Numbered from the stretch's first letter, positions 10,626 to 63,793 are shown. The stretch is 64,000 nucleotides of DNA from Candidatus Saccharimonadota bacterium (GCA_034520885.1 JAXHNE010000008.1:100-64099), one strand, 5' to 3'. Translations and numbers: made by a program. Notes: generated by a model from the letters alone, not told the origin.

Positions 10626-10631
10626 AAATCA

Positions 10632-24525: not shown

Positions 24526-24766
24526 GGATTCCTTGCGTTTTATTGTGAGCAGCGGTTTCGTACGTCATTAAGCCCCACATTACTACTTTTGGTTATCTGG
24601 TAAACAGTATACGAAAAACGCGCGCAAAACGCTAACGCTGATAGTTCGACAGCCCGCCCCTGTTATGCTATGATTATTCGCGAGCTAAATGCTATAAGCT
24701 TTAAGCTAAAAGCTAAACGTAGTCCCATCGCCCCGGTAGTAACATCAAAGATGTACTACGGGATAC

Positions 24767-25073
24767 ATCTAACGGTCAGGCTTGCCCACCAAAGCTTCAG
24801 CGACGGCGGGACATCAGGCAGTCGTAATAAGGCTTATCCGTTTATCGAAAAAAACTGGGAATGTTTACAGGAGGCGGGTCGATCCCGAATCGAACCCCAC
24901 ACGTACGTTACAATAAACCAAGTCACGGTCCCTTCGTCTAACGGTCAGGCTTGCCCGCCAAAGCTTCAGCGACGGCGGGACATCAGGTTCTCTCCGCTGA
25001 AGAGCGGACTGAAAATAAGGCGGCTCGATTCCGAATCGAACCCCCACACGTACGTTACAATAAACCAAGTCAC
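24767..25073 (+). repeat. Two decayed tandem copies of the tRNA-Glu 5' half plus its upstream flank
   Basis: 24767-24818 and 24927-24992 match tRNA-Glu positions ~1/10 to 36. Each carries an identical-position 30-nt hairpin insert (CTTGCCC[A/G]CCAAAGCTTCAGCGACGGCGGG) in the D-arm. The flank CGAATCGAACCCC(C)ACACGTACGTTACAATAAACCAAGTCAC is repeated at 24880-24926 and 25033-25073. Confidence 0.7.
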
Positions 25074-25148
25074 GGTCCCTTCGTCTAGTGGTCAGGACAT
25101 CAGGTTCTCATCCTGAAAACACGGGTTCGACTCCCGTAGGGATCACCA
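25074..25148 (+). tRNA. tRNA-Glu (anticodon CUC), CCA encoded
   Basis: The cloverleaf folds by hand. The acceptor is GGTCCCT/AGGGATC, the anticodon loop is TTCTCAT, and the T-arm is ACGGGTTCGACTCCCGT. Confidence 0.9.
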
Positions 25149-25165
25149 CTCGACTCATTACATTC

Positions 25166-26891: not shown

Positions 26892-27018
26892 ATCCGGACT
26901 CCGTAATTCCCGGTGCCCAATCCCCGGTTTTTATTCAACAGCCAATTCCTAAATACCAATCGGCCTATTACCGCATTGATCATTGATAGCAAAATTGAAA
27001 ACCGAAACGTTTGAAAAT

Positions 27019-27360
27019 TCATTTTTTTGGGGTTCCAAGTTGGCGTACTACCCCGGTCAACGTGCCCCATACCGCACGATCCATTGCGACCCGGTGCTTG
27101 AGTGATAGGCGAAAGCTCTCCTCCTCCCACCAAATCACCAGGTCGTTTTTACCGGCGGGGCGGGCACGATCAATTACTAGAATGTCCCCGCGTAAAATGC
27201 CGTACTCCCGCCAGTCGTTGTTATGGGCACGGAAAAAGTAGGTGCTTACCGAGTTTTTGATTAAAAGTTTATTAAGATCAAGGGTTTGGATGGCGGTGTC
27301 CGTGGCGGCATTGGGAAAGCCGTCGTGTACGGCCACGCCCTTGGGCTGTTGAAAATACAT
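27019..27360 (-). CDS. umuD: UmuD'-like S24-fold protein, probably non-autocleaving
   Basis: DGFPNAATD..LDLNKLLI..STYFFRA aligns with UmuD CGFPSPAAD..IDLNQLLI..ATYFVKA. Only 13 aa precede the GFP motif. The GDSM nucleophile position reads NNDW. Confidence 0.75.
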   Translation of the reverse strand: MYFQQPKGVAVHDGFPNAATDTAIQTLDLNKLLIKNSVSTYFFRAHNNDWREYGILRGDILVIDRARPAGKNDLVIWWEEESFRLSLKHRVAMDRAVWGTLTGVVRQLGTPKK

Positions 27361-27380
27361 GGCAATTACTCCGTAATTTA

Positions 27381-27412
27381 GAGGGTAGACGTTAGAGGTT
27401 AGAAGTTAGTGG
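27381..27412 (-). repeat. Heptad-periodic G-poor tract (short copy, pyrimidine-rich on - strand)
   Basis: The reverse complement reads CCACTAA CTTCTAA CCTCTAA CGTCTAC CCTCTAA. Confidence 0.6.
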
Positions 27413-27544
27413 AGCCACTTTTAGTGGCTAAAGTCATCCGTTCTGGCTTTGCGCGAAGACGGAAGACGAGTAATTGCTTGTAAAGCCCGTGAGTAGATGG
27501 CCGTTAGACTCATACCCACGCTGCCGACTATTATTATACAACGC

Positions 27545-27943: not shown

Positions 27944-27983
27944 AAGCTCATTGTAACACTAGAAATGAAACAAAAAGCACTGG

Positions 27984-28043
27984 CCTCTTCACCTTCTCTA
28001 ACCCCTAACGTCCAACCTCCAACCTCTAACCCCTAACGTCTAT
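27984..28043 (+). repeat. Heptad-periodic G-poor tract
   Basis: ACCCCTA ACGTCCA ACCTCCA ACCTCTA ACCCCTA ACGTCTA. It overlaps the last codons of the 28033 kinase gene. Confidence 0.7.
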
Positions 28044-32319: not shown

Positions 32320-32351
32320 GGGGTGTTATATAACTAGTTATATAACACCCC
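32320..32351. promoter_or_regulatory. 32-bp perfect palindrome GGGGTGTTATATAACTAGTTATATAACACCCC (family copy 2 of 4)
   Basis: It contains the 24-bp core. It lies 51 nt upstream of the gltX ATG, directly after a terminator in the - strand sense. Confidence 0.5.
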
Positions 32352-32387: not shown

Positions 32388-32469
32388 ACATAACTTAGCT
32401 GTTATTCTGCGAACAATTTGTTCGGAAAGAGTTTGGAGCTCACTCGCCACCCATTTTTTACTTATTACT

Positions 32470-32665
32470 TTCCCCATCTTCCATCTTCTAGCCGTTGCAT
32501 TCAATCCCCATTCCCCAATCTTCCATCTGTCATAACTATCACCTATTATCTATCATCTATTAACTATTAATTCTCACCTATGCGGCTTTGCCGCACTCAC
32601 CCATTGCGACGAAGTCACTTGCCATATTCCATCTTCTAAATTCCATCTTCCAACTACTAACCCCT
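32470..32665 (+). repeat. Heptad-periodic G-poor tract with embedded small hairpins
   Basis: TCTTCCA TCTTCTA ... TAACTAT CACCTAT TATCTAT CATCTAT TAACTAT TAATTCT. It contains TGCGGCTTTGCCGCA and CCATTGCGACGAAGTC. Confidence 0.7.
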
Positions 32666-33701
32666 AAAGACCGCTGGCGATTCGTAAAAGCTGGTCGGTG
32701 TTCAACGAGGACTCGCCTTCTACTTGAAACCAGACGCCACCGCTGACCCAAGTGGCGTTGTTGTCACCGTAAATATAAATGGTTTTGCCTTTGTCCTGTA
32801 CGGTTTGGAACGGCCGGTCGGAAGCTTGCACGTAGTTTTCCAGCAGTGCCTGGCTGTTCCAGTCGGAGTTTTGTTGCACGATCTTAAAATTGCGGTCATC
32901 GGCGGAATTGGATTGGTAGGAAAGCGCGATTTGTCCGGTGCTGTATTCGATCGGTCCGGACAAGTCAAAGCCGGCCGGTTCGTAGCCCGGTAACTTGGCT
33001 TCCACGCCGGCCCGTGTGGCGGCTAGTTGCACCGCTAGCGTGGGAAGGTGCTGTTTGGCAAAAAGCCCGCCAACGCTCAGAACCAACAAAACGCCCAGTC
33101 CGGTGGACAATGCGCGCGGGCTAATACGTAATTTCCGGGAAGCTCGCTCCCGGAAGGTTAACTTGCTGGGAGCCGGTTGTTCGTGGCTGTTGGCACGCTG
33201 CAAGGCCATGTCGAAGGGCGAAAGCGGCAGGACGCTCCGCTTGGCGGGCTCTGGTTCCGCGCTCGTGTCTTGTGCTGGTTGTTCGGGCGGCGGTGATTTG
33301 ATTTCCATCGGCTGGGTACTGGTTTTGGCCTGAAACTTGGCCACGTGCGGGTGTTTTTGCACTTGCTGAGCGCGTGAAACGCGAGCTTGGTCGGGCTGCA
33401 TGGTTCGCTTGGCTATCGGCCGGGACGGCGTAGTGTTTGCCTCGGATGACAAAGCCGGCTTTGCGAGACCTTGCCGACGCAAAGTTTTGGATTTATTCAC
33501 TTTGTTGTGTACGGCGTGGGAAGGAGTCGGCGTTTTCGGCGTCACCGTTTTTTGTGGTGCGATGCGGCGCACGGGGGTGAACCCATCGACCGAACGCGGT
33601 TTGTCGACCCCGGCGTTATTAGCCACTCGCCCCAGTTGCTCGCCGGTGCGAGCGTCGTACTTATATCCGTTTAATTCAATTGTATCGTTTTGTGTTGTCA
33701 C
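32664..33701 (-). CDS. Hypothetical single-pass membrane protein (basic/Pro-rich N-half, globular C-half)
   Basis: 345-aa ORF with the TM segment LGVLLVLSVGGLFA. No confident domain. Confidence 0.5.
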   Translation of the reverse strand: MTTQNDTIELNGYKYDARTGEQLGRVANNAGVDKPRSVDGFTPVRRIAPQKTVTPKTPTPSHAVHNKVNKSKTLRRQGLAKPALSSEANTTPSRPIAKRTMQPDQARVSRAQQVQKHPHVAKFQAKTSTQPMEIKSPPPEQPAQDTSAEPEPAKRSVLPLSPFDMALQRANSHEQPAPSKLTFRERASRKLRISPRALSTGLGVLLVLSVGGLFAKQHLPTLAVQLAATRAGVEAKLPGYEPAGFDLSGPIEYSTGQIALSYQSNSADDRNFKIVQQNSDWNSQALLENYVQASDRPFQTVQDKGKTIYIYGDNNATWVSGGVWFQVEGESSLNTDQLLRIASGL

Positions 33702-40154: not shown

Positions 40155-40648
40155 GCTTCAAACACTTTCTTTGTTATTTCTTCCATGGCTTCCATATACT
40201 TTTCTGGAGTTCGCTTGAGTTCCTCGTATAGTTTGTTCAAGTTGATCCATGCGATCTCATCTACCTCCTCTGCTTGAAGAATAAATTCTGTTAGCCGTTT
40301 TTGCGTGTGCGCAATGTAGCACATGTTTGCACGATAGCCGATGTGAGCTTTATGCATGATAAGTTGAGATTCTTCCAGCTTCAGGTTTACGCCAAGCTCT
40401 TCTTGTAATTCACGCACCGCGGTCTCTTTGTATATGTCACCATGTTCGACAGTCCCCACTACCGAGGGTCCCCACTTACCGGGATCCATTCGATTATTCA
40501 TTGAGCGTTTCGCAATCAATAGTTCATCGCTTTGGTTAAGTACCCACACCGAAATAATGCGCCAACGATCGTTGTCGTTAAGTTTGGAACGCTTTTTACT
40601 ACCAATTTCATTATCTTGTTCGTCTACCAGGGTAACAATCTCTGACAT
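40151..40648 (-). CDS. NUDIX hydrolase
   Basis: Nudix box GTVEHGDIYKETAVRELQEELGV. Confidence 0.85.
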   Translation of the reverse strand: MSEIVTLVDEQDNEIGSKKRSKLNDNDRWRIISVWVLNQSDELLIAKRSMNNRMDPGKWGPSVVGTVEHGDIYKETAVRELQEELGVNLKLEESQLIMHKAHIGYRANMCYIAHTQKRLTEFILQAEEVDEIAWINLNKLYEELKRTPEKYMEAMEEITKKVFEA

Positions 40649-41610
40649 TACGTAATTTCTATACTTACCGGGCAGTGGTCGCTGCCCATGACTTGATCAT
40701 GAATTTCGGCTTTTTTAACCTTGTTTTTTATGGATTCCGATACCAAAAAGTAATCGATACGCCAGCCAACGTTGCGTTCGCGGGCGTTGGCCCAATGCGT
40801 CCACCAGGTGTAGTGGCCGTTGCCTTTTGTGAATAGGCGGAACGTATCCACGAAGCCGGCTTTTAACCAGTCGTCAAAGCCGCGGCGTTCTTCGTCCGTA
40901 AAGCCTTTTTTGCCTTTGTTGTCTTTTGGCCGCGCCAGGTCATCCTCGGTATGCGCGACGTTCATATCACCGCAATACACCACCGGCTTCGTTTTTTGCA
41001 GGTCCGCACAGTAAGCAATCATCGCTTGGTCCCATTTTTCGCGCAATGGCAGCCGGGTCAGATCGTTCTTGGCGTTGGGCGTGTAGGCGGTGACCACGTA
41101 GAATTCGTCGTACTCCGCGGCAACTACCCTGCCCTCTTGGGTGGCATCGCCATATCCATCGCCGTTTAAGCCGGCTTGTTTTACGAACTTTTCCGGGATG
41201 CCATTAATTACCGCGATGGGCTTGGTTTTGGTGAAAATCGCCGTGCCGCTGTAACCTTTTTTTTGCGCGCTGTTCCAGTATTCTTCGTAGTCGGGCAAAT
41301 CAACCGGAGACTGACCTTGTTCAGCCGGAAGATCGACACCGCCCGAACTTTCGGGCTGCGCAGCCAGCTCAGCGGCCATCCGTGACTTTTCGCTTCGCGT
41401 CGTAGCTTCGGCTACGCCTTGTCGCGATAAAGCTCCCGGCTGGTTCACTGCTCTGGCTTCTCGCCATTTCGAAAGTTGGACAGCGTCAATCTTGGTTTCT
41501 TGTAAGCACAGAATGTCCGGTTGGTGTTCTTTTATGAAAGGTTCGAATAATTCCTTGCGGTGCACCGCCCGAATGCCGTTTACGTTCCAAGAATAAATCT
41601 TCATCCCCAC
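40648..41610 (-). CDS. xth: Exodeoxyribonuclease III with ~55-aa internal low-complexity insertion
   Basis: Motifs WNVNGIR, LCLQETK, GDMNVAH, WRIDY and SDHCPV. Confidence 0.9.
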   Translation of the reverse strand: MGMKIYSWNVNGIRAVHRKELFEPFIKEHQPDILCLQETKIDAVQLSKWREARAVNQPGALSRQGVAEATTRSEKSRMAAELAAQPESSGGVDLPAEQGQSPVDLPDYEEYWNSAQKKGYSGTAIFTKTKPIAVINGIPEKFVKQAGLNGDGYGDATQEGRVVAAEYDEFYVVTAYTPNAKNDLTRLPLREKWDQAMIAYCADLQKTKPVVYCGDMNVAHTEDDLARPKDNKGKKGFTDEERRGFDDWLKAGFVDTFRLFTKGNGHYTWWTHWANARERNVGWRIDYFLVSESIKNKVKKAEIHDQVMGSDHCPVSIEIT

Positions 41611-41630
41611 AAGTATAGCATTCCAAAAAT

Positions 41631-41664
41631 TCTCATTTTCGTGACGATCGTCACGAAAATGAGA
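41631..41664. promoter_or_regulatory. 34-bp perfect palindrome in xth/pyrH divergent region (second copy 42282-42315)
   Basis: TCTCATTTTCGTGACGA|TCGTCACGAAAATGAGA. Confidence 0.45.
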
Positions 41665-41739
41665 GTTTATGGGGTAATTTTGGGCGGGATTTTTTTGTTA
41701 TTTCTGGTAAACTTAATGGCAATGTATAAACGCGTACTA

Positions 41740-42261
41740 CTAAAGATTTCCGGCGAGCAACTGGCCGGTGAATTCGAAGGCGGGATAGACCCTAAGCATG
41801 CTGGCTGGTTGGCCGATTAAGCCGGCTTGTTTTACGAACTTTTCCGGGATGCCATTAATTACCGCGATGGGCTTGGTTTTGGTGAAAATCGCCGTGCCGC
41901 TGTAACCTTTTTTTTGCGCGCTGTTCCAGTATTCTTCGTAGTCGGGCAAATCAACCGGAGACTGACCTTGTTCAGCCGGAAGATCGACACCGCCCGAACT
42001 TTCGGGCTGCGCAGCCAGCTCAGCGGCCATCCGTGACTTTTCGCTTCGCGTCGTAGCTTCGGCTACGCCTTGTCGCGATAAAGCTCCCGGCTGGTTCACT
42101 GCTCTGGCTTCTCGCCATTTCGAAAGTTGGACAGCGTCAATCTTGGTTTCTTGTAAGCACAGAATGTCCGGTTGGTGTTCTTTTATGAAAGGTTCGAATA
42201 ATTCCTTGCGGTGCACCGCCCGAATGCCGTTTACGTTCCAAGAATAAATCTTCATCCCCAC
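41740..42261 (-). pseudogene. Truncated duplicate of xth (N-terminal 147 codons, then out-of-context tail)
   Basis: Identical to the xth N-terminus and created by the 651-bp duplication. Confidence 0.7.
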
Positions 42262-42366
42262 AAGTATAGCATTCCAAAAATTCTCATTTTCGTGACGATC
42301 GTCACGAAAATGAGAGTTTATGGGGTAATTTTGAGCGGGATTTTTTTGTTATTTCTGGTAAACTTA

Positions 42367-44223: not shown

Positions 44224-45108
44224 ATGCCAGCGAATCCAATTATTGAACTCAACGAAGTAAGTAAACTTTACGGCTTCGGCGATGCCACGACTGTCGCCGT
44301 GGATAGCGTGTCGCTTTCCATAAAAAAAGGTGAGTTCGTGGCGGTCATGGGACCGAGCGGTTCGGGGAAATCAACTTTGATGAACGTCATTGGCCTGCTG
44401 GATCGCCCCACTCACGGTAACTACTCGCTCAATGGCCGCCGTGTTTCGAGATTGCGACAAAATCGCAGCGCACGGATACGCCGCGATCGAATGGGCTTCA
44501 TTTTTCAAAACTTTAACCTGCTGCCACGTATCAACGTTTTGGAAAATGTCGCTTTGCCGCTTACTTACAAAGGCATGCTGCAGTCGCGCCGGCTCAGGCG
44601 GGCGGCCGATATGCTCGAGCAAGTCGGATTGGCCGATCGTGAGTACTTTATGCCCAAACAACTCAGCGGCGGCCAAGCACAGCGCGTGGCAATTGCCCGG
44701 GCGCTGGTGAATAACCCGGAAGTTATTATCGCGGACGAGCCGACGGGCAATCTGGATAGCGCGGCCAGCCGTATAGTGATGGAGCTTCTCAGTGATTTGC
44801 ACAAAATGGGGCACACCGTACTACTCGTGACTCATAACCCCGAACTCACCCGCTACGCCGGCCGCGTTTTATTTATGCATGACGGCGAAATTATCGCCGA
44901 TGAACGCACCAAGGTCGGTGAGGTCCCCGAACTGGCCCAAAAGTTTTATCATTTGCCCAAACAAACGCAGGAAGATCACCTGGCCGGCATTTCCGCCTTA
45001 ATGACCGCCATTCCGCAAAAAAAATCCGGCAAAAAGAAATCCAAAAAGAAGAAGTCCAAAAGCAAAAAAAGCTATAAAACCAAGTCCGGCAAAAAGGAGA
45101 ATAACTGA
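44224..45108 (+). CDS. ABC transporter ATP-binding protein (MacB/LolD/FtsE-like) with Lys-rich tail
   Basis: Walker [10 protein letters not shown], signature LSGGQAQR, and Walker B IIADEP. Confidence 0.9.
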
Positions 45109-50324: not shown

Positions 50325-50711
50325 CTATTTTTGCGGCTCGGAGTGGGCTTTGAGCCACTCGGCGATTTCTTCCACGCTTAATTTGTCAGTCGCCACCTTG
50401 ACGGCAAAATCTTCCAGATCGCCCTCGTTGACTTTAGTGTCTTCGCCGTTGATTTCTAAAAACGTTAAACCACTGAGCATCCCCGTACGCTTATTGCCGT
50501 CCACGAAAGGATGGTCGGCAATGATGCCACGAATGAGTGCGGCGGCTTTGTCGTGCGGGCTTTCGTAGATTTCCGCGCCAAAAACGGCTTGCGTTTGGGT
50601 GGCGACGACTGACTCCAGTCTCCCTTGATCGCGGACACCGCTTCCGCCTCCCGTTTCTTCGAGCAACAGCTCATAAATTGCGAGAATCTGCTCCAGGGTT
50701 AAGAACTTCAT
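50325..50711 (-). CDS. doc: Doc (death-on-curing) Fic-family toxin
   Basis: Doc-type Fic motif HPFVDGNKRTG. Confidence 0.9.
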   Translation of the reverse strand: MKFLTLEQILAIYELLLEETGGGSGVRDQGRLESVVATQTQAVFGAEIYESPHDKAAALIRGIIADHPFVDGNKRTGMLSGLTFLEINGEDTKVNEGDLEDFAVKVATDKLSVEEIAEWLKAHSEPQK

Positions 50712-50926
50712 CGCTCAGCAAGGTTTTTGAAGTCTTTTTTGTGTTTGCGGAGGATGTTTTGGGCGGCTTCCAACGCTTGATTGTCCGCTGCGCTGTTTTC
50801 GTTCAGTGCTTTTAAGGCTGCCATACGCAAAAAGTCGCTGCGGCTGGTGTATTGCTTTTTGGCCGCCGCGTCAATCTTTTTGACCAGTTCTTCGTCCATG
50901 GATACGTTAAATGTTTTCTTTGCCAT
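50708..50926 (-). CDS. Ribbon-helix-helix (CopG-like) antitoxin
   Basis: MAKKTFNVSMDEELVKKIDAAAKKQYTSRSDFLRMAAL. An ATGA overlap couples it to doc. Confidence 0.75.
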   Translation of the reverse strand: MAKKTFNVSMDEELVKKIDAAAKKQYTSRSDFLRMAALKALNENSAADNQALEAAQNILRKHKKDFKNLAER

Positions 50927-50962
50927 ACATAAATTATACAAAATTTGTATAAACCCCGTCAA

Positions 50963-51128
50963 CGCCCACCCTCACCTATCACCTATAACCAATCACCTAT
51001 TAATTCTCATCTATCATCCATTGCGACGAAGTCGCCTACCACCTTCCACCTTCCACCTTCCAACGTCTACCCTCTAACCTCTAACTTCTAGCATCTATCA
51101 ACTACTATCTATCACCAACTCCCGCTAC
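50963..51128 (+). repeat. Heptad-periodic G-poor tract
   Basis: CCACCTT CCACCTT CCACCTT CCAACGT CTACCCT CTAACCT CTAACTT CTAGCAT CTATCAA CTACTAT CTATCAC. It contains CCATTGCGACGAAGTCGC. Confidence 0.75.
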
Positions 51129-51243
51129 GCCTCCCAGTCTTCAATCGTAATCTTCCCATTCTCTTCAGTAACCACGACTTTCTGGTGCTCCCGCCAGGCC
51201 AGCTTGTTCATGATTTCTTTGGGAATGGTTACCATACAGTTTC
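51125..51243 (-). pseudogene. 3' fragment (last ~37 codons) of an AbrB/SpoVT-like gene
   Basis: Translates as YMVTIPKEIMNKLAWREHQKVVVTEENGKITIEDWEA*. It is clearly homologous to the intact gene at 54140-54322. It has no start codon or promoter. Confidence 0.7.
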
Positions 51244-51328: not shown

Positions 51329-51431
51329 GAATATGAAAACAAAAAGTTAAAACTCACCTGCTTAAATCAAGAAGGGAGGTGGATTTAACTTAAACTATTA
51401 GTTGTTAAATATCTTAAAATGGAGGGAGATT

Positions 51432-51656
51432 ATGAGCGCAGAAACACTGCTACGTTCAAGTGAAGAAGAAAAACTGCCGGAGGTTACAGGGGAGCAAGCG
51501 GCTTCGCTAGGTGAAACAGTTTTCTCGGCCTTGGCCGTAGATGCTGAATTGGCGACTAAAGGCGAAGACGGCGGATATGGTGGAGCGGAAAACTATGAGT
51601 TTACGAACTCCGTTACGCGGCTGGGCGATGGCCAAACTGTGCCCGACGAAAGATAA
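51432..51656 (+). CDS. Candidate graspetide (omega-ester/amide RiPP) precursor peptide, 74 aa
   Basis: GGAGGGA RBS 5 nt before the ATG. The leader is acidic. The C-terminal region ATKGEDGGYGGAENYEFTNSVTRLGDGQTVPDER is rich in Thr/Ser/Lys donors and Asp/Glu acceptors. It lies immediately upstream of the ATP-grasp ligase. Confidence 0.6.
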   Translation: MSAETLLRSSEEEKLPEVTGEQAASLGETVFSALAVDAELATKGEDGGYGGAENYEFTNSVTRLGDGQTVPDER

Positions 51657-51669
51657 CCAGGCGCGGTAA

Positions 51670-51696
51670 GGGTGGTTACTGTAGCCACCCTTTTTT
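51670..51696 (+). terminator. Intrinsic terminator/attenuator between precursor and ligase genes
   Basis: Stem GGGTGG / CCACCC followed by TTTTTT, ending 3 nt before the ligase ATG. Confidence 0.5.
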
Positions 51697-51699
51697 ATT

Positions 51700-52674
51700 A
51701 TGTCTGAAATCGCAATTTTTAGTACGAGTTTCGATCAGCCGACTTATGGGCCTGTGGCTTCCAAACTGCATGAGCGTGGCTACGAAACCTGGGTTTATAA
51801 AGCCGACAAGGTGCTCAGCGGCGAGGATGAATTAACAGTAAGGGTTAACGATGAAGGATTTGGTCTTGTCTATAACGGCGTTAGTCGAGTTTTAAGTGAC
51901 ACCGGCTGCGCTTGGTTTCGACATCCAGAAGTGTACGGATTGAATTATCCAGACAAAGCAAAGCAAATGAGTATTGAGCAAGAAACATCAAATTTGCAAG
52001 AATCATTTTGGCGACAAGTTCCTGACGAAGCTTGGCTGAATCATCCTCGGCAAATGCAGAAAGCGCAGGCAAAATTGTCTCAGTTAGTCTTAGCCCAGGA
52101 GCTGGGTTTTCACGTACCAGCAACAGTTGTCTCCAGTTCTTGGGAAGAAATTGATAATTTAAGTTCTTCTAAAGAATTTGAAGACATCATTGTGAAGATG
52201 CCAAGAGGGGTTTTACACGATTCGGATGGCGTGAGAGTTCTTTATGCAACAAGGCTTAATAAAGAAAGAAGAGTGTCACTACAGGAAAATAACCCGTTCC
52301 CTGCTTTCTATCAAGAATACATGACAAAGGCACGCGAATGGCGCCTCACAGTTGTTGGAGACGATGCTTTCGGAGCAGCAATTTACACAACCGAAGATGC
52401 GAAAGATGATTGGAGGCGGCATCAATTTGGTTCGGGTGTTCGTTTCGAGAAAGACGAGCTGCCCGATAAAGAAATTGATAGATGTATTAAATACTTACGA
52501 CACTTTAATTTGCTTTACGGAGCTTTTGACTTTGTAGAAGATCACGAGGGTGTACTAACATTTCTTGAATGTAATACAAATGGTCAATACCGTTGGCTGG
52601 AAGATCTTCTTGGGTTGCCGATCAGCGATGCCATTGTTTCGCAACTGGTGACAAAACACGAAAGTAACAAATAG
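51700..52674 (+). CDS. MdnC/MvdD-type ATP-grasp macrocyclase (graspetide ligase)
   Basis: Collinear by-eye matches to the microviridin ligase MdnC, listed as window/MdnC: CAWFRH/AVWYRR; AKLSQLVLAQELGFHVPATVVS/HKQLQLQVARQLGLLIPGTLTS; EWRLTVVGDDAFGAAI/ELRITIVGEQIFTAAI; DWRR/DWRK; LLYGAFDFV/LNYGAIDMI; FLECNTNGQYRWLE/FLEINPVGEFFWLE. Confidence 0.85.
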   Translation: MSEIAIFSTSFDQPTYGPVASKLHERGYETWVYKADKVLSGEDELTVRVNDEGFGLVYNGVSRVLSDTGCAWFRHPEVYGLNYPDKAKQMSIEQETSNLQESFWRQVPDEAWLNHPRQMQKAQAKLSQLVLAQELGFHVPATVVSSSWEEIDNLSSSKEFEDIIVKMPRGVLHDSDGVRVLYATRLNKERRVSLQENNPFPAFYQEYMTKAREWRLTVVGDDAFGAAIYTTEDAKDDWRRHQFGSGVRFEKDELPDKEIDRCIKYLRHFNLLYGAFDFVEDHEGVLTFLECNTNGQYRWLEDLLGLPISDAIVSQLVTKHESNK

Positions 52675-53152: not shown

Positions 53153-53167
53153 AAACTCATCATAACA

Positions 53168-53500
53168 AACCTCCCATCCCCCATCTTCTATCTACCACCT
53201 ATAACCTATAACCTCTAACCTATCACCTATTAACTATTATCTATCATCCATGAGTAACTCCCGTTACTCCTCCCATCCCCCATCTTCTATTTACCAACTT
53301 CCACCTTCCAACTTCCACTTATCACCTATAACCTATCACCCCTCACCTATTAACTATTATCTATCATCTATGAGTAACTCCCGTTACTCCTCCCATCCCC
53401 CATCTTCTATTTACCAACTTCCACCTTCCATCTTCCAACTTCCATCTTCCAACTTCTAACGTCTAACCTCTAACTTCTAGCATCTATTATCTATCATCCA
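53168..53500 (+). repeat. Longest heptad-periodic G-poor tract, containing a 120-bp internal tandem duplication
   Basis: CCTATAA CCTATAA CCTCTAA CCTATCA CCTATTA ACTATTA TCTATCA. The 53223-53310 segment repeats at 53343-53430, including the hairpin GAGTAACTCCCGTTACTC. Confidence 0.8.
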
Positions 53501-53582
53501 TTCGAGTCGTTGAAGACAGTAAGAGGCGAGAATCTACTAAACGCTCATGGTTACCAGTTAAATACGTTGTATATTTAAGTAA

Positions 53583-54143
53583 ATGAGTATATTTTCACCT
53601 AATACGGTAAACTTTCGAACCGATGTAAGGGCGCATAGGCAAAAGGCGGTTGATGTGGGTGTCTATGGGCGCCCAGTCCCGGAACGTGTTGATTCTGTCT
53701 TACTCGATGGCGAACCGGTGCGTTTTGAAAATCAAGATACGGTTGAACGGGTTTTTGGTGCCGCACACGAACTAGGGAAGCTTAAACGGCATCGAGCACC
53801 TGCGGATTCTTTTGGATTCGTGGCGTTATACGGTGGATACGTTGATATTAAAAATGTTCCCAGAAGATTTGATCGTTGGTTGGATATTTCGGTTAATGAG
53901 GATCCAATATCACCGTCAGATATTGATGACGGCGATACGGTTGCCATCGGAGCGCATTACCACGATATGAAAAGCCCCATGATCCGTCACGCGCTCGTGG
54001 CGGCCGAAACCAGTGAAGACATGATGTTTTTCCACATACTTGGAAGTGACGGACCGTTTGCCTTGTCCGGACTCAAGGAAGCGCTTGACACATATAAAAG
54101 CTCGAACGTCTACAATTTTGAAGAAATAAAACTTTTGGACTAA
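53583..54143 (+). CDS. Hypothetical protein
   Basis: 186-aa ORF with no recognised domain. Its 3' end overlaps the convergent AbrB-like gene by 4 nt. Confidence 0.5.
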   Translation: MSIFSPNTVNFRTDVRAHRQKAVDVGVYGRPVPERVDSVLLDGEPVRFENQDTVERVFGAAHELGKLKRHRAPADSFGFVALYGGYVDIKNVPRRFDRWLDISVNEDPISPSDIDDGDTVAIGAHYHDMKSPMIRHALVAAETSEDMMFFHILGSDGPFALSGLKEALDTYKSSNVYNFEEIKLLD

Positions 54144-54322
54144 CCGGACCAATCGGTAATTTTAACGGTCTTGCCGTCCAGTTCGACGACAACTTTTTGG
54201 TGTTCGCGCCAGCTCAGCTTGTTCATGATTTCTTTAGGAATAGTTACCATGTAGCTTTCGCCCTCACGGCCGGTTTTTTGTATTTTACGGATGTTTTCTT
54301 CACCCAAGTCTTGCCTGCTCAT
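54140..54322 (-). CDS. AbrB/SpoVT (MazE-like) swapped-hairpin DNA-binding protein, 60 aa
   Basis: YMVTIPKEIMNKLSWREHQKVVVELDGKTVKITDW. A GAAAGG RBS is present, and the palindrome lies 16 nt upstream of the ATG. Confidence 0.8.
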   Translation of the reverse strand: MSRQDLGEENIRKIQKTGREGESYMVTIPKEIMNKLSWREHQKVVVELDGKTVKITDWSG

Positions 54323-54338
54323 CTTTGCGCCTTTCTTT

Positions 54339-54362
54339 TGTTATATAACTAGTTATATAACA
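54339..54362. promoter_or_regulatory. 24-bp double palindrome TGTTATATAACTAGTTATATAACA (family copy 3 of 4), candidate operator/-10 region of the AbrB-like gene
   Basis: A perfect palindrome that overlaps TATAAC -10-like hexamers on both strands. Confidence 0.5.
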
Positions 54363-54380
54363 CCATGGTAGCAAAGATGT

Positions 54381-54602
54381 TTAGCTCGCGGGGTTTTCTC
54401 TCTCAAGCAGTGTGCCTTTGTTGTTGAATACGAATATTTCAGATTTGTGTTTAGAGGCGTCTTTGCGAGCCGAAGCGAGAGCTTCGTTCTTTGTATTAAA
54501 AAGCTTATTGGGATTAGTCTTAACATCGGCTTTGCGTACATACCAGCCCTTGCCGTTATGTGAATCGAGATGATTCATGTATACGGTATTTTTCGGGTCC
54601 AT
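54381..54602 (-). CDS. DUF2188-like small protein
   Basis: From the internal ATG: MDPKNTVYMNHLDSHNGKGWYVRKA...FNTKNEALASARKDA...IFVFNNKGTL. Confidence 0.55.
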   Translation of the reverse strand: MDPKNTVYMNHLDSHNGKGWYVRKADVKTNPNKLFNTKNEALASARKDASKHKSEIFVFNNKGTLLERENPAS

Positions 54603-56342: not shown

Positions 56343-56452
56343 GTTTTTGTATTTTACGGATGTTTTCTTCGCCTAAGTCCTGTCTGCTCATCTTTACGCC
56401 TTTCTTTTGTTATATAACTAGTCATATAACACCATGGTAGCAAAGATGTTTT
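56343..56452 (-). pseudogene. 5' fragment (first 16 codons) of an AbrB-like gene with RBS, palindrome (56408-56431, one mismatch) and upstream flank
   Basis: MSRQDLGEENIRKIQK is identical to the N-terminus of the 54322 gene. The ~110-nt block parallels 54276-54383. Confidence 0.7.
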
Positions 56453-56810
56453 TCTCCTGTTTCGTTGCCCGCTTTCAGCGGGGCGTGACGACCACCTTTT
56501 TGAGTCGGCAAAAAGGTGGGTAAAAAACCGACCCATGCGGCTTTGTCTTGATGGGCTCACCTGTCAAGCCTGACAACGGCCCTTGCGGAACTCCCGTTGG
56601 TCGGTCTCGCCGCTTTGTCTCATAGGAAGGCGGCTCAACTGGTCCTCGGGCGTTACTCGTTGTCAGTTTGACGTAGCTAGCCGGCGCAAAAACAAAAAGC
56701 AATATTTTTGAACAAGCCCTGAAGGCTACAAACCACGTTTCCTTCCGCAACGTATCTACGGATACGTCTTGTCAGGAGAACAAGATTTCTAGCTCATCAG
56801 AATCTTGGCT

Positions 56811-57798: not shown

Positions 57799-60621
57799 CT
57801 ATACGCCTTCGATGAAGGTTTCGATGAATTTGTTTAGCTTGGAGCTTATTCTTTCTACAATTGTTTTGCGCTTAAGCACGCTGGGCTGCTCGGCGAGCGT
57901 GTTGGCAATCTCATCTCCCCGCGGTTTGCGGCCGCTGTAGAGGTAGTTATCAATCAAACCCTGCAACTCCTCGCTCAAGACGCCTTCCTCGCGGCACATG
58001 GCTTCAAAAGCGGCAGCTTTTTCGTCGGTCCAAAAGCTTTCAAAGGTACCTTCTACATCGTCAGCATCAGAGATTTCGGGGATGTGTGATTCAATGAACT
58101 TTTCAATCAATTCGCGCTTGCTCCTGAGCGTTGCTTCGGAGTTGACAATATTTCGTATGCTCTTCTTGATGGATTCGGCTTGCTCCTCGTCAGCATCTAC
58201 TAATTTAGCCAGTAGGCGGATGATGTAGTCCACATTTATATCATCACGCCGGATGAGCTCCAGCTCAAAATCAACGTCTTCTAAAATCGACACCTTTTCC
58301 TTGGCTTGGTCGGATTTCACTTTATCGTAGATGTCCAGGTACTTACTCTTAAAATCTTCAAACGTCTGAGCATCAATAGCGGCATCTTCAAACGTAAAGT
58401 CGGTAAATGAGCGCAGTACGTTGCGCAGACGCATTACTTCACGAAAATGCTGCACAAACTCTAGTTGCTGATCTTCGCCAACTAGCTCGTCTACCCCGCT
58501 CGGGGTGGAGGCGAGATGTCGCATTTCCATGATTGCCTGGTTGAAGTTTTTCAGATAGGTCTCATACGGGTGCATAAAGATGGTTTCTTTAGCGTCTACA
58601 TTGCTAAATAGCTGAATGGCGTCGTCGGTATACTCTTTAAGATTACGAAACACGACGATATTTCCCTGGGATTTAGCGTCGCCCAAAATGCGATTAGTTC
58701 GCGAATAAGCCTGTAGCAACCCGTGATAACGCAGGTTTTTATCAACATAGAGTGTATTAAGCCTTGGGCTAAGCCGAAGCCTGGAGCATGTCCGCCGCTA
58801 CAGCAAAATATCGATCTCGTTATTTTTTACGCGCCGGGCAATATCGCGGTAGTAATGATAAAAGCTCTTGCTGTCTTTAGTGGTGTAGCTCGTGCCAAAC
58901 ATTTTGTTGTAGTCATTTATGTAGCTTTCTAGCCGGTCGCGACTATGTTTATCCAAGCTGCCGAGCGACAGTTGCGGGCCAGCGTCGTGCGCGAGCATTT
59001 CTGCTTTGTCGTCCTCGTTGGCGCTGTAGGTAAAAATTGTCGCGATTTTAAGCTTGCGATCTTTGTCAGCCTGTTTTTGTTTAAATAGCTCATAGTATTT
59101 GCACAACACATCTACGCTAGACACGGCAAAGATTGCGTTAAAGTCACGGGAGTGCGTTTTGCGATCATGGTTGGCCAAAATGTAATCAGTGATCTGCCCG
59201 AGTCGTTGTGGTGACTCCATTAATTCTTTGGTATCAAGAGCTTCTACTTCTATATCCTGTTCGTTTTTCGTATCTTTGCGTCTGTAGCGGCCAACATACT
59301 CCACGCTGAACTTCAGCACGTTTTCATCATTAATTGCATCGGTGATGACGTATTGGTGTAGGCGATCTCCAAATAAATCCTTGGTAGTCCGCTTGCCAAG
59401 TGCGTTGCCGGTGGCGTTATCGGCGAATATTGGTGTGCCGGTGAACCCAAACAGTTGTTTGTTATTAAAAAACTCTACAATTCGCTTGTGCGTTTCGCCA
59501 AACTGGCTGCGATGACATTCGTCAAAAATAAAGACGATCTTCTCATCTTTGTGCTCGTCCATCTTAAGCAAATGTTTTTGGTGCGTAATGGCGTTATTAA
59601 GCTTTTGGATGGTAGTAACGATCAGCTTGCTATCCGGATCGGCAAACTGCTTCACGAGCTGTTTGGTGTTGTCGGTAGTGTCCACGCTGTTTGCTTTGAA
59701 GTTATTGAACTCTTTGATTGTTTGCGTATCGAGGTCGTTTCGGTCTACCACGAACACAACTTTGTAAATATCCGGCAAGTCTACGAGAATTTGGCTGGCT
59801 TTAAAAGAGGTCAAAGTTTTGCCACTACCAGTTGTGTGCCAAATATAGCCGCCTTTGTTGCTGTGTTTTACGCGGTCTACCAGAGCTTCGACTGCGTAGT
59901 ATTGATACGGTCGCAGCGCCATCAGGGTTTTGGTTTCGGCTAGCACAATGTGCTTGGCAATCATTTTGCTAATGTGGCAGCGCTCTAGAAAACTTTCGGT
60001 AAATTCCGCAAGTTCGGTTATTTTGTGGTTGTCTTTGTCCGTCCAGTAGCTAGTGAACTTAAAGCCGGCTTTGCGGTTATTGGCGTAGTATTTGGTGTTT
60101 ACACCGTTACTAATTACAAATAGCTGGATGTACTGAAACAGCCCGTATGACGAATCGTAACTATGCTTTTGGTAGCGATGTGTCTGGTTAAAGGCTTCTT
60201 TTAATTCTAATCCCCGGCGTTTAAGCTCCACTTGCACCAGTGGTAAACCGTTTATCAGCAGCGTTACGTCGTAGCGGTTTTTGTAAGCCCCATGCATGGT
60301 GACTTGGCTAGTCACCTGGTATTGGTTTTGACACCATTCTTTTTGGTTAAAAAACTCTACATAAAAGTTCCCCTCATCACGCTTGAGCACGTATTTATCG
60401 CGCAGGGTCTGCGCTTTATCGAACACGTTACCTTTGCTCAGGTGATTGAGGATTTGCTGAAACTCTTTTTCGTTAAAGGTTGTTTGATTATGTTTTTCCA
60501 GCTGGGTTTTTAGGTTCGCGAGCAAATCTTTTTCTTCACGAATCGTTACACGTTCGTATTTCAAACCTTCAAGCTGCTTTATAAGGTTATTTTCTAGTGT
60601 TTGCTCGGATTGCGTGGTCAC
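57799..60621 (-). pseudogene. hsdR: Type I restriction enzyme R subunit HsdR, interrupted by in-frame TAG inside a scrambled motif V
   Basis: The N-terminal ORF has HTTGSGKT and FDECHRSQ. The C-terminal ORF starts at LQAYSRTNR (motif VI). Both ORFs are in the same frame, separated by a TAG at 58798-58800. Confidence 0.85.
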
Positions 60622-61262
60622 TTTGCGCCGATAATATCTTTAAATTTCTTTCCGATAGTAGTGATGCTAAGTTTTTCCATATCTTCTAGAGCTTTCTTTG
60701 CGTCATTCATATACTTGACTGGTGTGTAAGCAGCAAAATCTTCTTGTCGGCTCATGTACAATTTGTCAAATATTTCCATGCGTTGATTATAGTTTTTTAG
60801 CTGTGACTCTGTGTCCTGTTCGCCTGTATTGTCAAGGAAGTCCTTTGTTATTTCGGCAAACATCCTTTGTTTGTTGTACCTGATTTGTCTTATATCATCG
60901 TCAAATGATGCAGCACTTGCTTTTATTGACTCATCCAAGACTTTTGCGTTCTGATAAAAATCTGTGATTGTCTCCCATTCGTCTTTATCAAAGTTACTAG
61001 AGAATAAATGGCTGTATTTTGACCAAGAATCATCCCGAATTATATTCAGGTCAAGGTTGAGACTACCTCGCCTTGTTGCTTCTTTAAGCTTTGGGATACA
61101 GCTCTCAATGTGCTGAATTTCTAAGAAAATAGAATTTGCTGCAGCGACCTTCCGGTCATTCTTCTGACGTCTATAAATTAAGAACGCGAATAGCCCTACA
61201 ATAAACGTTACGAAAGTTTGTAGAAAGTTTGAATTTAGAAAATTTACGAAAATTTCCATCAT
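60618..61262 (-). CDS. Hypothetical 214-aa protein with N-terminal TM helix, embedded between hsdS and hsdR
   Basis: TM segment FLQTFVTFIVGLFAFLIY, then a helical soluble part. A GTGA overlap couples it to the hsdR start, and an ATGA overlap couples it to the upstream ORF. Confidence 0.6.
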   Translation of the reverse strand: MMEIFVNFLNSNFLQTFVTFIVGLFAFLIYRRQKNDRKVAAANSIFLEIQHIESCIPKLKEATRRGSLNLDLNIIRDDSWSKYSHLFSSNFDKDEWETITDFYQNAKVLDESIKASAASFDDDIRQIRYNKQRMFAEITKDFLDNTGEQDTESQLKNYNQRMEIFDKLYMSRQEDFAAYTPVKYMNDAKKALEDMEKLSITTIGKKFKDIIGAK

Positions 61263-61570
61263 TTACCGTCCTTGTTTTCAAACATGGATAGTTTATCAAT
61301 TGTTTTAATATCAAGTTTGTTAAGCATTTCCAGCATAGCGGACATTGATTCTACCTCGTCTTTTGTAGGTATTTTTTTGTTTTCTATTTCTGCAAGTTTT
61401 GATTTCATTGCTTCAATTAGCTTCATTGCTTGCTCAAATCTCTTCGCTAATTTTTCGTATTGTTCTTTGCTCGGCGAAGAGGGTGTGTCCAACATTTCAA
61501 GTGTTGCTTTTAGGCTTCCGTACTCTTCGTCTATTTTGCCGCTCTGTTTAAGGTCATCGTAATCACTCAT
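61259..61570 (-). CDS. Hypothetical 103-aa acidic/Lys-rich coiled-coil protein, embedded in the R-M operon
   Basis: It starts 20 nt after the hsdS stop. An ATGA overlap couples it to the 214-aa ORF. Confidence 0.55.
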   Translation of the reverse strand: MSDYDDLKQSGKIDEEYGSLKATLEMLDTPSSPSKEQYEKLAKRFEQAMKLIEAMKSKLAEIENKKIPTKDEVESMSAMLEMLNKLDIKTIDKLSMFENKDGK

Positions 61571-61590
61571 ATGAATCTCCTTTGCTTAAA

Positions 61591-62865
61591 TTATATAAAC
61601 ATCTGCTGGAGGAGGGATTTTTTGAATTTCTTGGCTTGTTCCAGCTTCTTCTCCTCTAATTCTATTTTAGCATCCAAGCTTTTTAAGAAGTCGGCGATTT
61701 TCTGCTGTTCTTCAAGTACTGGCATTTTAACCTTGGTATTCTTGGCTCCGTCAATTGTGTATGTGGCGACTGTGGTAATCGACGCATTATCAGCCATCTG
61801 TTTTTGTATAAACCGAGTTTGAAGCGCCTGGAAGAGAAACTTTGGATCTAACTTTTCCGATTTCCTAAACCACAAGACATTACCATCTTTGAAATAAAAC
61901 TTATCATCATTATCAACCAAATACGCCGATCCGATACTACCTACCCCAGTGACAAGCATATCTCCAGGCTTCGGTGTGCCATATTTTTTGGATAGCTCAT
62001 CGTATAGGTTTTCTGAAATAAATATAGGGGTTCTGAACGGCTTACCTTGTGCCAAATTGATGATCTCTCTAGTCCTATAGAAAGGCACACCTGATTGTTG
62101 CCAGTCTTTCTGTAGAACTCTTTTGCTAGATCCAATTTCCATTACCCCCCCTAGCTTTTTTTCTTGCCAGGCGGGTAAGGGTTTGCCGTTGTCGTCTTTG
62201 AAGCGAATTTCGGGCGTCTGTACTGAGCTTGTCGAAGGAAAGATTTTTTGCATGATGCCTTTTTTGTATTTTTTCAGCAGCTCCACCTTTTTATCAATCG
62301 CAGAAACCTTATCATCAACAGTAGATAAAAACCCCGCAATTTTCTCTTGTTCATCTTTGGTTGGAAGAGCAAATTTCATTCGCTTGAGGTGTGTAGGGCC
62401 AAAATGATGTAGCACTGCTCCTGTGCTCATAATCTTAGCTTGTCGTTGAAAGACCGGAGAGGTTAGTAGCTGTTTTAGATATTTTTTCTCAGAAATATTA
62501 GTTGGACGAAAGCGGATTATACCAGTGTAGGCAACGGAGCCAACAGTATCACTGTCGACTTCACTTACGTTGCCAAGCGTTCCGCTAGTCGTGACCAGCA
62601 TATCGCCAGTTTTCAGTCTGAAATGACTCCATTTTTCATCAACTTTACTTGGATCAAGATAGTTACACCCTTCAAGTGTAACTGATTGTCCAGAGAGTCC
62701 ACTTAATCTGATTAGTGGCACGCCGTCATCGTGAAAATCTTTTGCTAAAATTCCCGGTCCTTCTTGAAAATCAGCAATGTTTGGAAGCATTTCTTCTTCC
62801 CACTCTCCATTAAACCCCGGAAACCTCAGTTTTGGCACTTTTCTGGTTTTTGTATCAGCAGTCAT
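61591..62865 (-). CDS. hsdS: Type I restriction-modification specificity subunit HsdS (two target-recognition domains)
   Basis: N-terminus VPKLRFPGFNGEWEE. Each half ends in a conserved helical spacer: KKVELLKKYKKGIMQKIF and KKLEQAKKFKKSLLQQMF. Confidence 0.9.
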   Translation of the reverse strand: MTADTKTRKVPKLRFPGFNGEWEEEMLPNIADFQEGPGILAKDFHDDGVPLIRLSGLSGQSVTLEGCNYLDPSKVDEKWSHFRLKTGDMLVTTSGTLGNVSEVDSDTVGSVAYTGIIRFRPTNISEKKYLKQLLTSPVFQRQAKIMSTGAVLHHFGPTHLKRMKFALPTKDEQEKIAGFLSTVDDKVSAIDKKVELLKKYKKGIMQKIFPSTSSVQTPEIRFKDDNGKPLPAWQEKKLGGVMEIGSSKRVLQKDWQQSGVPFYRTREIINLAQGKPFRTPIFISENLYDELSKKYGTPKPGDMLVTGVGSIGSAYLVDNDDKFYFKDGNVLWFRKSEKLDPKFLFQALQTRFIQKQMADNASITTVATYTIDGAKNTKVKMPVLEEQQKIADFLKSLDAKIELEEKKLEQAKKFKKSLLQQMFI

Positions 62866-63722
62866 TTTTTTGCCATCCCCTTTTGCTTATTAGCCAACCC
62901 AATACTAAATAAAGGCTGCTTGAAGCTGAAGCCTCCGTGCGAGTTCTTCCATTCTTTCTGTATTAGAGATATAGTCAAAATTTTTTCTCTGGGCTTCACC
63001 CCAAGTGTATGCAATGCAGTAAGACGTAAATTTTGTAAAAGAGTTATAACAAACGCACAGTCACCGAACAGTCTTTGTATCTTAAAGCTAACGGTTCTCT
63101 TATAAACTGCGGGAGCTCCCTCCAGCGTAGGATCATTGGCATTTTTTAGCGGCTCTTTCGAGAAGTATGTAATCTGACAGTCGGCTTCTACTAGTAGTTG
63201 GTTCTCGTTATTTTTATCTACAAGCGATACATAATTCTTACCGTGCTTTGCGCTAACACGACATCCGTGTTTGTAGGCATTCAGCAGTTGATAATTATCT
63301 AGGTAATCTTTAGCAACCGCACAAATTAAACTCGTGTATTCTTCATAGCGCTTTTTATAGTCCGGTGATTCTTTTTGAATAGCAAATATGTAGTTTGTCA
63401 AAAACCAACTAGAAAATCTAGTCGTTTTGAGAAAGTTGTCTCTTATAAATTTTTGGAGATTCTTTGAGTCAATAAATAGTGCGCTCGGGAATCTATTAGT
63501 TTTTAATGATAGTGCATAGGCATTAATGAACAACACCTCAAGTATTTGAAGGTAAATAGAATAAAGTTCAAACACAATTCTACTTTGTTTCTTTGGATCT
63601 TTTAGCCTTTCAAATTTATTATGCAGTCCATTTACTTTTTTGAACCAATAATCAATGTCCATGTTGTTATAGTGGTCTAGTTTGAACTTGTGGAGCTCCT
63701 TATCCAGAATTTGCTGGCTCAT
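62862..63722 (-). CDS. Hypothetical 286-aa protein inserted at the 5' end of hsdS; contains an R-x4-H (HEPN-like) motif
   Basis: Starts MSQQILDKELHKF. The motif context is LLNAYKHGCRVSAKHG. There are ATGA overlaps at both ends. Confidence 0.6.
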   Translation of the reverse strand: MSQQILDKELHKFKLDHYNNMDIDYWFKKVNGLHNKFERLKDPKKQSRIVFELYSIYLQILEVLFINAYALSLKTNRFPSALFIDSKNLQKFIRDNFLKTTRFSSWFLTNYIFAIQKESPDYKKRYEEYTSLICAVAKDYLDNYQLLNAYKHGCRVSAKHGKNYVSLVDKNNENQLLVEADCQITYFSKEPLKNANDPTLEGAPAVYKRTVSFKIQRLFGDCAFVITLLQNLRLTALHTLGVKPREKILTISLIQKEWKNSHGGFSFKQPLFSIGLANKQKGMAKK

Positions 63723-63793
63723 ATTCTGCCCCACTCGCCACCAAACCCCGGAAACCTCAGTTTTGGCGTATTTGTCGGTCTACTACTGTTCAT
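63719..63793 (-). pseudogene. 24-codon hsdS 5' stub
   Basis: MNSSRPTNTPKLRFPGFGGEWGRI* parallels the hsdS N-terminus MTADTKTRKVPKLRFPGFNGEWEE. The DNA core AAACCCCGGAAACCTCAGTTTTGGC is identical at 62813-62837 and 63743-63767. Confidence 0.6.

Follow-up and report, generated by a model that had tools for sequence, protein, structure and literature searches.

Heptanucleotide tracts in the intergenic spacers of a Saccharibacteria genome: a probable lineage-specific case of degenerate tandem repeats

The short tandemly repeated repetitive (STRR) sequences of cyanobacteria are reportedly heptanucleotide repeats, the units of STRR1 to STRR3 being given as CCCCAGT, TTGGTCA, and CAACAGT, and small hairpin elements, the small dispersed repeats (SDR), are said to lie inside tandem heptamer arrays in Nostoc punctiforme. 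Repeats of TAACTGA, together with mixed heptamer repeats, are described in Beggiatoaceae, Cyanobacteria, and Bacteroidetes (MacGregor 2015, PMC4679880), where the expanded spacers lack counterparts in close relatives and the indels are multiples of 7 nt. Mrazek et al. (2007), as summarized there, found the commonest repeat unit of 5 to 11 nt in prokaryotes to be the heptamer, which occurs in scattered phyla and is ascribed to polymerase slippage. Here, we analyzed five intergenic tracts, named T1 to T5, in a 64-kb window of a Candidatus Saccharibacteria genome (the window is the whole stretch of DNA analyzed, and coordinates count from its first letter). An earlier note, made from the sequence alone, had called them a family of G-poor, heptad-periodic tracts and had overlooked that heptad tandem repeats with embedded hairpins are an already described class. 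With a probability of roughly 60%, we take the tracts to be lineage-specific, non-coding heptanucleotide repeats of the STRR/long simple sequence repeat (long SSR) class, made by slippage, diverged, re-amplified, and copied between spacers, probably without a dedicated function.

Periodicity was measured as the lag-7 match, i.e., the fraction of bases equal to the base 7 nt downstream, and compared with 500 composition-preserving shuffles. Against a mean of 0.255 across the window, the lag-7 autocorrelation claimed for the tracts was significant in all of them (z of 4 to 13) (Table 1), with harmonics at lags 14, 21, and 28 and troughs at other lags. A heptad scan of the whole window (42-nt windows, cutoff of ≥66% lag-7 matches) returned only T2 to T5 and an unrelated (GCAACAA)5 array at 1657-1692; T1 fell under this cutoff and yet was called by Tandem Repeats Finder, which gave periods of 7, 14, and 21 across the five loci as well as a 120-nt unit in T5 (2.1 to 2.3 repeats). 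BLAST with tract queries found no extra copies in the window. To within a few bases, the five loci lie where the earlier note had placed them, and the heptamer strings, the three hairpins, and the sequence CCATTGCGACGAAGTC, common to T3 and T4, that it had quoted were all present. The tracts are non-coding, as had been argued, because a 7-nt period cannot fit a reading frame and the neighbors are Pfam-supported open reading frames (ORFs). The idea of an all-frame stop array was discarded because none of the six reading frames of the CCANCTT arrays contains a stop codon. A second short intergenic heptamer array, (AGCTAAA)5 at 24683-24717, is, like (GCAACAA)5, unrelated in sequence to the G-poor family; the two suggest a genome that is generally prone to 7-nt slippage.

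Base counts per tract bore out the near-absence of G on one strand. The + strand of T2 to T5 is nearly G-free, and T1 is their reverse complement, a mirror case with 1 C per 42 nt. T5 (351 nt) has 8 G, of which 6 lie in two hairpin copies, 1 in CTAACGT, and 1 in CTAGCAT; T4 has 9 G per 166 nt, five of them held by its hairpin, and T2 has 2 G per 60 nt. The hairpins therein hold nearly all tract G.

Table 1. Heptad tracts and associated features in the 64-kb window
Feature	Position	Strand	Lag-7 match	Lag-7 z	Description
T1	27373..27414	-	0.63	4.3	Short inverted tract; - strand CTAACTT CTAACCT CTAACGT CTACCCT
T2	27984..28043	+	0.62	5.2	TAACCCC TAACGTC CAACCTC CAACCTC TAACCCC TAACGTC; fills the spacer from histidine kinase stop to response regulator
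T3	32439..32672	+	0.49	6.6	Mosaic: CCCCATCTTC head, CTATNAN array, two hairpins, CCATCTT array, CTAAC tail
T4	50963..51128	+	0.60	8.3	Mosaic, 21 heptamers in continuous 7-nt phase
T5	53153..53503	+	0.63	12.8	Largest tract; 2.7 copies of a 120-nt higher-order unit, starts 53175, 53295, 53415
Hairpin GAGTAAC-TCCC-GTTACTC	53252..53269; identical copy 53372-53389	+			DNA fold -4.9 kcal/mol, z -7.8
B module	CACCTATTAACTATTATCTATCATC at 53344..53368 and 53224-53248; CACCTATTAATTCTCATCTATCATC at 50994-51018	+			Most conserved non-periodic module
Tail module CCTCTAACTTCTAGCATCTAT	53467..53487 (T5); identical 51078-51098 (T4)	+			21 nt; 2 matches vs 0 expected
Promoter-like site TTGACG-18-TATAAT (11/12)	50933..50962	-			RHH-Doc operon; adjoins T4, not repeat

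The three long tracts are not only alike in period but are built from the same parts. In a collinear alignment of T3, T4, and the T5 units (T5a, T5b), the mosaic runs in the order C-rich head CCCCATCTTC, CTATNAN/CACCTAT array, B module, one or two small GC-rich hairpins, CCANCTT array, CTAACNT array, and tail CTAGCATCTAT...TCTATCA. The B module exists as first noticed, although it had been written with one dot too many (CACCTATTAA.T.T..ATCTATC); its real pattern, CACCTATTAAYTMTYATCTATCATC, has 3 exact matches against 0 expected. The tail module shared by T4 and T5 includes an irregular unit, CTAGCAT, which therefore marks their common descent. Because irregular shared modules cannot arise independently and are explicable only by copying, T3, T4, and T5 descend from one sequence and not from independent origins, and the proposal of a single family can stand. 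T1 and T2 are short pieces of the CCAAC/CTAAC part, T1 being inverted (87% complementarity to T5 and 84% to T4). We also tried T4 and T5 as the ends of a larger duplication with two MazE-like genes and rejected this, the paralogues sharing only about 72 nt.

Differences in length among homologous copies (T4, T5.1, T5.2, and T5.3) consist mainly of whole heptamers, such as 3 versus 6 CANCTTC or 3 to 5 CTATNAN units. The 120-bp tandem duplication reported in the largest tract was confirmed, its two full units (53174-53293 and 53294-53413) being 88% identical; each is made of 14 heptamers plus a 22-nt hairpin segment, so that 120 equals 17 × 7 + 1. In T4, the B module is followed by the hairpin GCGAC-GAA-GTCGC (51023-51035), CACCTTC three times, the CTAACNT array, and the CTAGCATCTAT tail, and the single 7-nt phase of its consecutive heptamers runs through the 21-nt hairpin segment. 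T3 carries the hairpins TGCGGC-TTT-GCCGCA (32581-32595) and GCGAC-GAA-GTCAC (32606-32618). Since the source is a metagenome-assembled genome (MAG) and assemblers can collapse or expand tandem repeats such as the 120-nt unit, the possibility of an assembly artifact, or of a chance low-complexity feature, was weighed and judged extremely improbable: the tracts occupy five separate loci, all with unique flanks and intact neighboring genes, their copies have diverged (76 to 88% identity), and the periodicity and module statistics are far beyond chance, which leaves the copy number of T5 as the only property that could suffer.

We propose that a founder G-free heptamer, Y-A-N-C-N-H-Y, would have expanded via slipped-strand mispairing in a 7-nt register, and that the units would then have diverged by point changes, mainly between C and T and almost never to G. 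Sub-arrays would have undergone renewed amplification, giving higher-order repeats of 14, 21, and 120 nt, and the mosaic would have been copied into several spacers, the candidate routes being ectopic recombination, template switching, or some unspecified mobilization. Tracts may grow until they reach selected sequence, i.e., stop codons, start codons, or -35 boxes, and in this proposal they fill spacers exactly because expansion halts there.

In order to put the tracts into the context of the phylum, we searched the GTDB species representatives and kept the 80 best genomic matches as relatives; nearly all are Saccharibacteria, and their loci amount to 1.3 Mb. Most relatives keep the gene order unknown (345 aa)-glutamyl-tRNA synthetase (GluRS)-DUF3048-histidine kinase-response regulator-UmuD-UmuC, so the ancestral state of the spacers can be read. 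The spacer between kinase and regulator, whose median in 56 relatives is -5 nt, measures 89 nt here (T2 accounting for 60 nt), and that between the 345-aa ORF and GluRS, with a median of 55 nt in 67 relatives, measures 395 nt (T3, 234 nt). T2 and T3 were therefore added in this lineage. The closest GluRS outside the source MAG is 74% identical, and the contig that carries it has no tracts and a different gene order. The same heptad scan found tracts in only 1 of the 80 related loci, another MAG (17354-17843), with quite different heptamers [(GGAATTA)11, TTTCTAT, CTTTAGT, ATTTCAA, and CTTGACT] and again a small hairpin. Heptad tracts thus recur here and there in the phylum, with sequences specific to each lineage.

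Beyond these relatives, the exact module pattern had no match in 185,579 GTDB species representatives. A metagenome scan with the B module returned one match (JAESGH010000021.1), in an unrelated genome with Bacteroidota-like neighbors, whose intergenic tracts (4549-4667, 5633-5758, and 8896-9000) are long inverted arrays, e.g., (GAATGAT)n facing (ATCATTC)n. One of them carries the B-module-like CACCTATTAACTATCATCTATCATC; as a homologue, the locus was rejected, and we regard it as a parallel occurrence. Unannotated (CTAACYT)n arrays were found in 46 viral contigs, but a permuted control heptamer was equally frequent (47 contigs) and CCACCTT occurred in 2, so the idea that these heptamers recur in any special way was dropped. 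One viral or prophage contig has a near-perfect (CCTCTAA)n array of about 100 copies (4143-4855) between a tape-measure-like gene and the next ORF, a junction with shorter arrays in four related contigs. BLAST of phages with the tracts gave no match, and that of plasmids gave a single one, an unannotated (TTCTAAC)8 array in a Pseudoalteromonas replicon.

The tracts sit at gene boundaries, as had been noted, but their settings vary: 5' leader (T5 and T1), 3' untranslated region (UTR) (T3), operon spacer (T2), and upstream of a promoter (T4). T5 occupies most of the divergent spacer from the DUF6886 gene (start 53152, -) to ORF 53583-54143 (+). T4, between a MazE/AbrB-like mini-ORF and the RHH-Doc operon, adjoins with its left edge the -35 box of the RHH-Doc promoter and overlaps with its right edge the mini-ORF stop. 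T3 is bounded by the stop codon of ORF 32664-33701 (-) and a terminator/palindrome upstream of GluRS, T2 parts two genes of one operon, and T1 lies, in opposite polarity, in the leader of the umuDC-like operon, in the spacer upstream of the UmuD-like (S24) gene, where it adjoins the hairpin AGCCACT-TTT-AGTGGCT (27413-27429). The tracts have no common functional position, and they stop exactly at selected sequence, as filler would do if it grew until something blocked it. Incidental effects are plausible, namely, a Shine-Dalgarno-like GGGAGG for the DUF6886 gene, uncoupling of kinase and regulator, and a longer 3' UTR.

The complement of T5 places that GGGAGG 6 nt upstream of an AUG beside the DUF6886 start, which could also point to a role for the purine-rich transcript. 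A GGAGG/GGUGG/GGA array in the mRNA sense of T2, T3, and T4 (and of T5 if read from the divergent promoter region) would then provide ribosome standby sites or a CsrA-like sponge or, in a variant, the G-rich non-template strand would form two-tetrad G-quadruplexes or R-loops. The purine-rich strand is indeed the sense strand of the flanking genes in 4 of the 5 tracts, and the complement of the CCANCTT arrays shows GGA at 7-nt intervals. However, T1 runs in the other polarity, the site of T3 is a 3' UTR, and known CsrA sites are more than 7 nt apart and usually in hairpin loops (PMC4679880), whereas the purine-rich strand is unstructured (z of -0.2). Rfam gave only three tRNAs over the window at the gathering score and no credible match over the tract regions at an E value of ≤1, CsrB/Rsm families included. 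We consider such a role improbable.

Folding of the tracts is limited to hairpins of 5 to 7 bp. GCGAC-GAA-GTCGC folds better than shuffles (z of -3.6), while TGCGGC-TTT-GCCGCA was assessed as part of a 46-nt segment, which does not stand out (z of -1.75). On the pyrimidine-rich strand, no tract pairing was predicted beyond the hairpins, the remaining pairs using the G-containing flank 53500-53582. That neither strand folds, together with the lack of an Rfam match, upholds the distinction already drawn from repetitive extragenic palindromic (REP) sequences and BIME; CRISPR arrays had been set aside as well, rightly, given a 7-nt period and a 120-nt duplication instead of a repeat-spacer architecture. 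With up to 2 to 3 mismatches, no hairpin copies were found outside the tracts in the window, save one 2-mismatch match to the T4 hairpin at 44452-44466, at about the chance rate (0.25 expected); each hairpin has 1 or 2 copies per 64 kb, all in tracts. Independent mobility of the hairpins is not supported, because they were seen only inside tracts.

The whole tract could also be a non-autonomous mobile element moved in trans, in the manner of REPIN/RAYT, of IS200/IS605-derived palindromes, or of the Nostoc SDR. Within 26 kb, there are at least 4 homologous copies, spread over three loci, as well as two fragments. At equivalent places, T3, T4, and T5 carry small GC hairpins that differ from one another (a further one adjoins T1), the tract spacers are short in relatives, and T4 and T5 lie inside a toxin-antitoxin/restriction island. 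Nevertheless, terminal inverted repeats are not just absent but impossible, because both tract ends are G-poor on the same strand, no flanking target-site duplication was seen, the hairpins stay within the tracts, and the copies vary by heptamer units with ends that are not fixed. No transposase (Y1 included), integrase, or RAYT was found among the approximately 68 ORFs scanned in the window. Mobilization in trans thus seems unlikely to us, and the suggestion of decayed miniature mobile elements, in the sense of miniature inverted-repeat transposable elements, had to be abandoned on account of the G-poor ends and the missing transposase.

The heptamers themselves raise the question of constraint or shared ancestry. 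The 82 in-phase heptamers, of 36 types, fit Y-A-N-C-N-H-Y, with C at position 4 in 72 of 82 and positions 3, 5, and 6 nearly free. This pattern would suit binding arrays with a 7-nt register, in which a single-strand binder (cold-shock/OB-fold or S1-like) or a duplex nucleoid protein would cover the G-free strand or its transcript with one protomer per heptamer, recognize a Y-Y-A-N-C core, and thereby modulate the transcription or translation of the adjoining genes. Measured from the near-invariant A, the core has C at +2 and a pyrimidine at -2; changes avoid G, so that both strands stay unfoldable, and T5, T1, T4, and T2 adjoin start codons or promoters. As reviewed in PMC4679880, Bacillus subtilis CspB binds pyrimidine-rich heptamers with one protein per unit. 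On the other hand, raw positional conservation overstates constraint, because slippage-amplified units are not independent. We therefore joined the 36 types by a minimum spanning tree, which gave a conservative count of 40 changes; heterogeneity of these changes among positions did not reach significance (chi-square P = 0.067; P = 0.016, uncorrected, for position 2 by itself). Conserved positions were thus rejected as proof of selection once unit amplification was discounted, and shared ancestry can explain the core. The gene-relative positions are inconsistent (5' leader, 3' UTR, and operon spacer), the orthologous spacers of relatives have no such tract, and the window encodes no candidate binding protein. 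We regard binding arrays as unlikely, and slightly more doubtful still the fuller version in which the tracts are a lineage-specific functional element, G-free by selection, whose array for an OB-fold or nucleoid protein tunes operon junctions, promoters, and leaders in a regulator-poor genome. The recombination hot spots that the earlier note had also suggested are, like its binding arrays, still a guess.

Several observations nonetheless weigh against our preferred explanation of slippage-made filler. Position 2 of the heptamer is A in 81 of 82 cases and position 7 is a pyrimidine in all 82, and none of the 14 differences between the T5 duplicates falls on either position, both of which hint at constraint. 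G was avoided among the inferred changes (4 of 40; P of about 6e-4 if all targets are equal), and there were 19 C-to-T or T-to-C changes versus 0 between A and G, a bias that points to either a strand-asymmetric mutation process or selection against G. Core conservation and G avoidance are also what one would expect if selection favored an unstructured strand or a binding register, and strand polarity is the same in 4 of the 5 tracts. In addition, slippage is an inferred generator, and the nearest relative is distant (74% in GluRS, as above); the mosaic may have been copied to five loci by any of several routes; and the data read are 64 kb of one MAG.

Among other features of the window, several lie near the tracts. 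Directly downstream of T1 is an operon of umuD-like (S24 peptidase) and umuC-like (Y-family polymerase with DUF4113) genes (25611-27360), a pair that is syntenic in many Saccharibacteria. Between T4 and T5 lies a cassette for a graspetide-type ribosomally synthesized and posttranslationally modified peptide (51402-52674), unusual for Saccharibacteria, which comprises a small ORF, MSAETLL...TNSVTRLGDGQTVPDER (from about 51432), a stem-loop, and a 324-aa ATP-grasp ribosomal peptide maturase (TIGR04187, 5.9e-48, under the family cutoff). The region from 50 to 64 kb is a lower-GC defense/toxin-antitoxin island with the RHH-Doc genes (50325-50962), MazE-like mini-ORFs (51128-51241 and 54143-54262), and a type I restriction-modification locus (57799-63734), whose hsdR is split in two ORFs (58798-60621 and 57799-58719) and whose hsdS is at 61591-62865. 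In three tract-adjoining genes, -10-like hexamers end 5 to 7 nt before the ATG, at 27950-27958 (TACAAT, with an upstream TG), 50933-50938 (TATAAT), and 53570-53575 (TATATT); they were read from the sequence, the scan calling the middle site only, and suggest that leaderless mRNAs may occur in the host.

A 24-bp perfect palindrome, TGTTATATAACTAGTTATATAACA, occurs four times (10602-10627, 32324-32347, 54339-54362, and 56408-56431), one of the copies differing from the other three by one mismatch. It precedes the GluRS start by about 56 nt in one case and a MazE-like mini-ORF in another, and two copies are inside a 113-nt repeat (54275-54387 and 56344-56456, 93% identical); the palindrome resembles an operator or a bidirectional promoter element. 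Elsewhere, a 651-bp tandem duplication within 41161-42323, with a 300-nt block that is 100% identical (41161-41460 and 41812-42111), results in two Exo_endo_phos nuclease genes, one of full length (40648-41610) and one truncated (41740-42261); behind each of them lies the same 50-nt palindrome (41623-41672 and 42274-42323). At 24750-25150, upstream of tRNA-Glu (25074-25148), there are two partial copies of the 5' half of this tRNA with the preceding promoter-like sequence (96 to 98% identical, one broken by a GC-rich insert of about 30 nt); tRNA pseudogenes and integration scars are possible explanations.

In the small streamlined genomes of Saccharibacteria and other bacteria of the candidate phyla radiation, one would not expect expanded repetitive spacers, and no published link between Saccharibacteria and heptamer repeats was found in the literature searched. 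With two Saccharibacteria MAGs, the patchy distribution of heptanucleotide tracts (cyanobacteria, Beggiatoaceae, and some Bacteroidetes) now includes another phylum. The locus is also a compact case for the origin of such tracts, since flanking synteny in dozens of relatives shows the "before" state of the spacers. Such tracts are likely to break short-read assemblies and to serve as hypervariable strain-typing markers. If core conservation and G avoidance did reflect selection, a register-reading protein not known so far would be implied, although the present evidence does not require one.

Compared with known repeat classes, the tracts resemble the proteobacterial REP, BIME, and REPIN elements in being mosaic, intergenic, and multicopy with small palindromes, but the REP unit is itself a palindrome and RAYT dependent, whereas here palindromes are minor, the bulk is unfoldable, and the window has no RAYT. 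With the cyanobacterial STRR they share degenerate head-to-tail 7-nt units, intergenic location, and lineage-specific sequences; STRR occur at many loci, and the tracts at five in 64 kb. They differ in their units, which are YANCNHY (CATCTTC, CACCTAT, and TAACNTC; 0 of the 36 types match the STRR1 to STRR3 units or their rotations), in the reduced-genome host, and in that a fixed mosaic is itself repeated. Like the Nostoc SDR, small hairpins are inserted in heptamer arrays and different ones take equivalent positions, but the Nostoc elements are reported to be 21- to 27-nt families in many copies and contexts, unlike the tract-bound hairpins of this window. The TAACTGA repeats are likewise direct intergenic heptamers of sporadic phylogeny, often near start codons, with expanded spacers and 7-nt indels; they consist, however, of one exact heptamer in 2 to 6 (up to 43) copies, mostly just upstream of starts, while here we find many variant heptamers, long mosaics, and inconsistent positions. 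The long SSR of Mrazek et al., as summarized in PMC4679880, agree in that the 7-nt unit is their commonest class, in their non-coding nature, their ascription to slippage, and their scatter over phyla, and differ in being near perfect, the tracts being strongly degenerate with non-periodic modules and hairpins. The earlier note had held that a match to a described repeat family would speak against its proposal; such a match exists for the class and not for the sequence. Head-to-tail 7-nt units, intergenic non-coding sites, and length changes between copies in unit steps place the tracts in the STRR/long SSR class.

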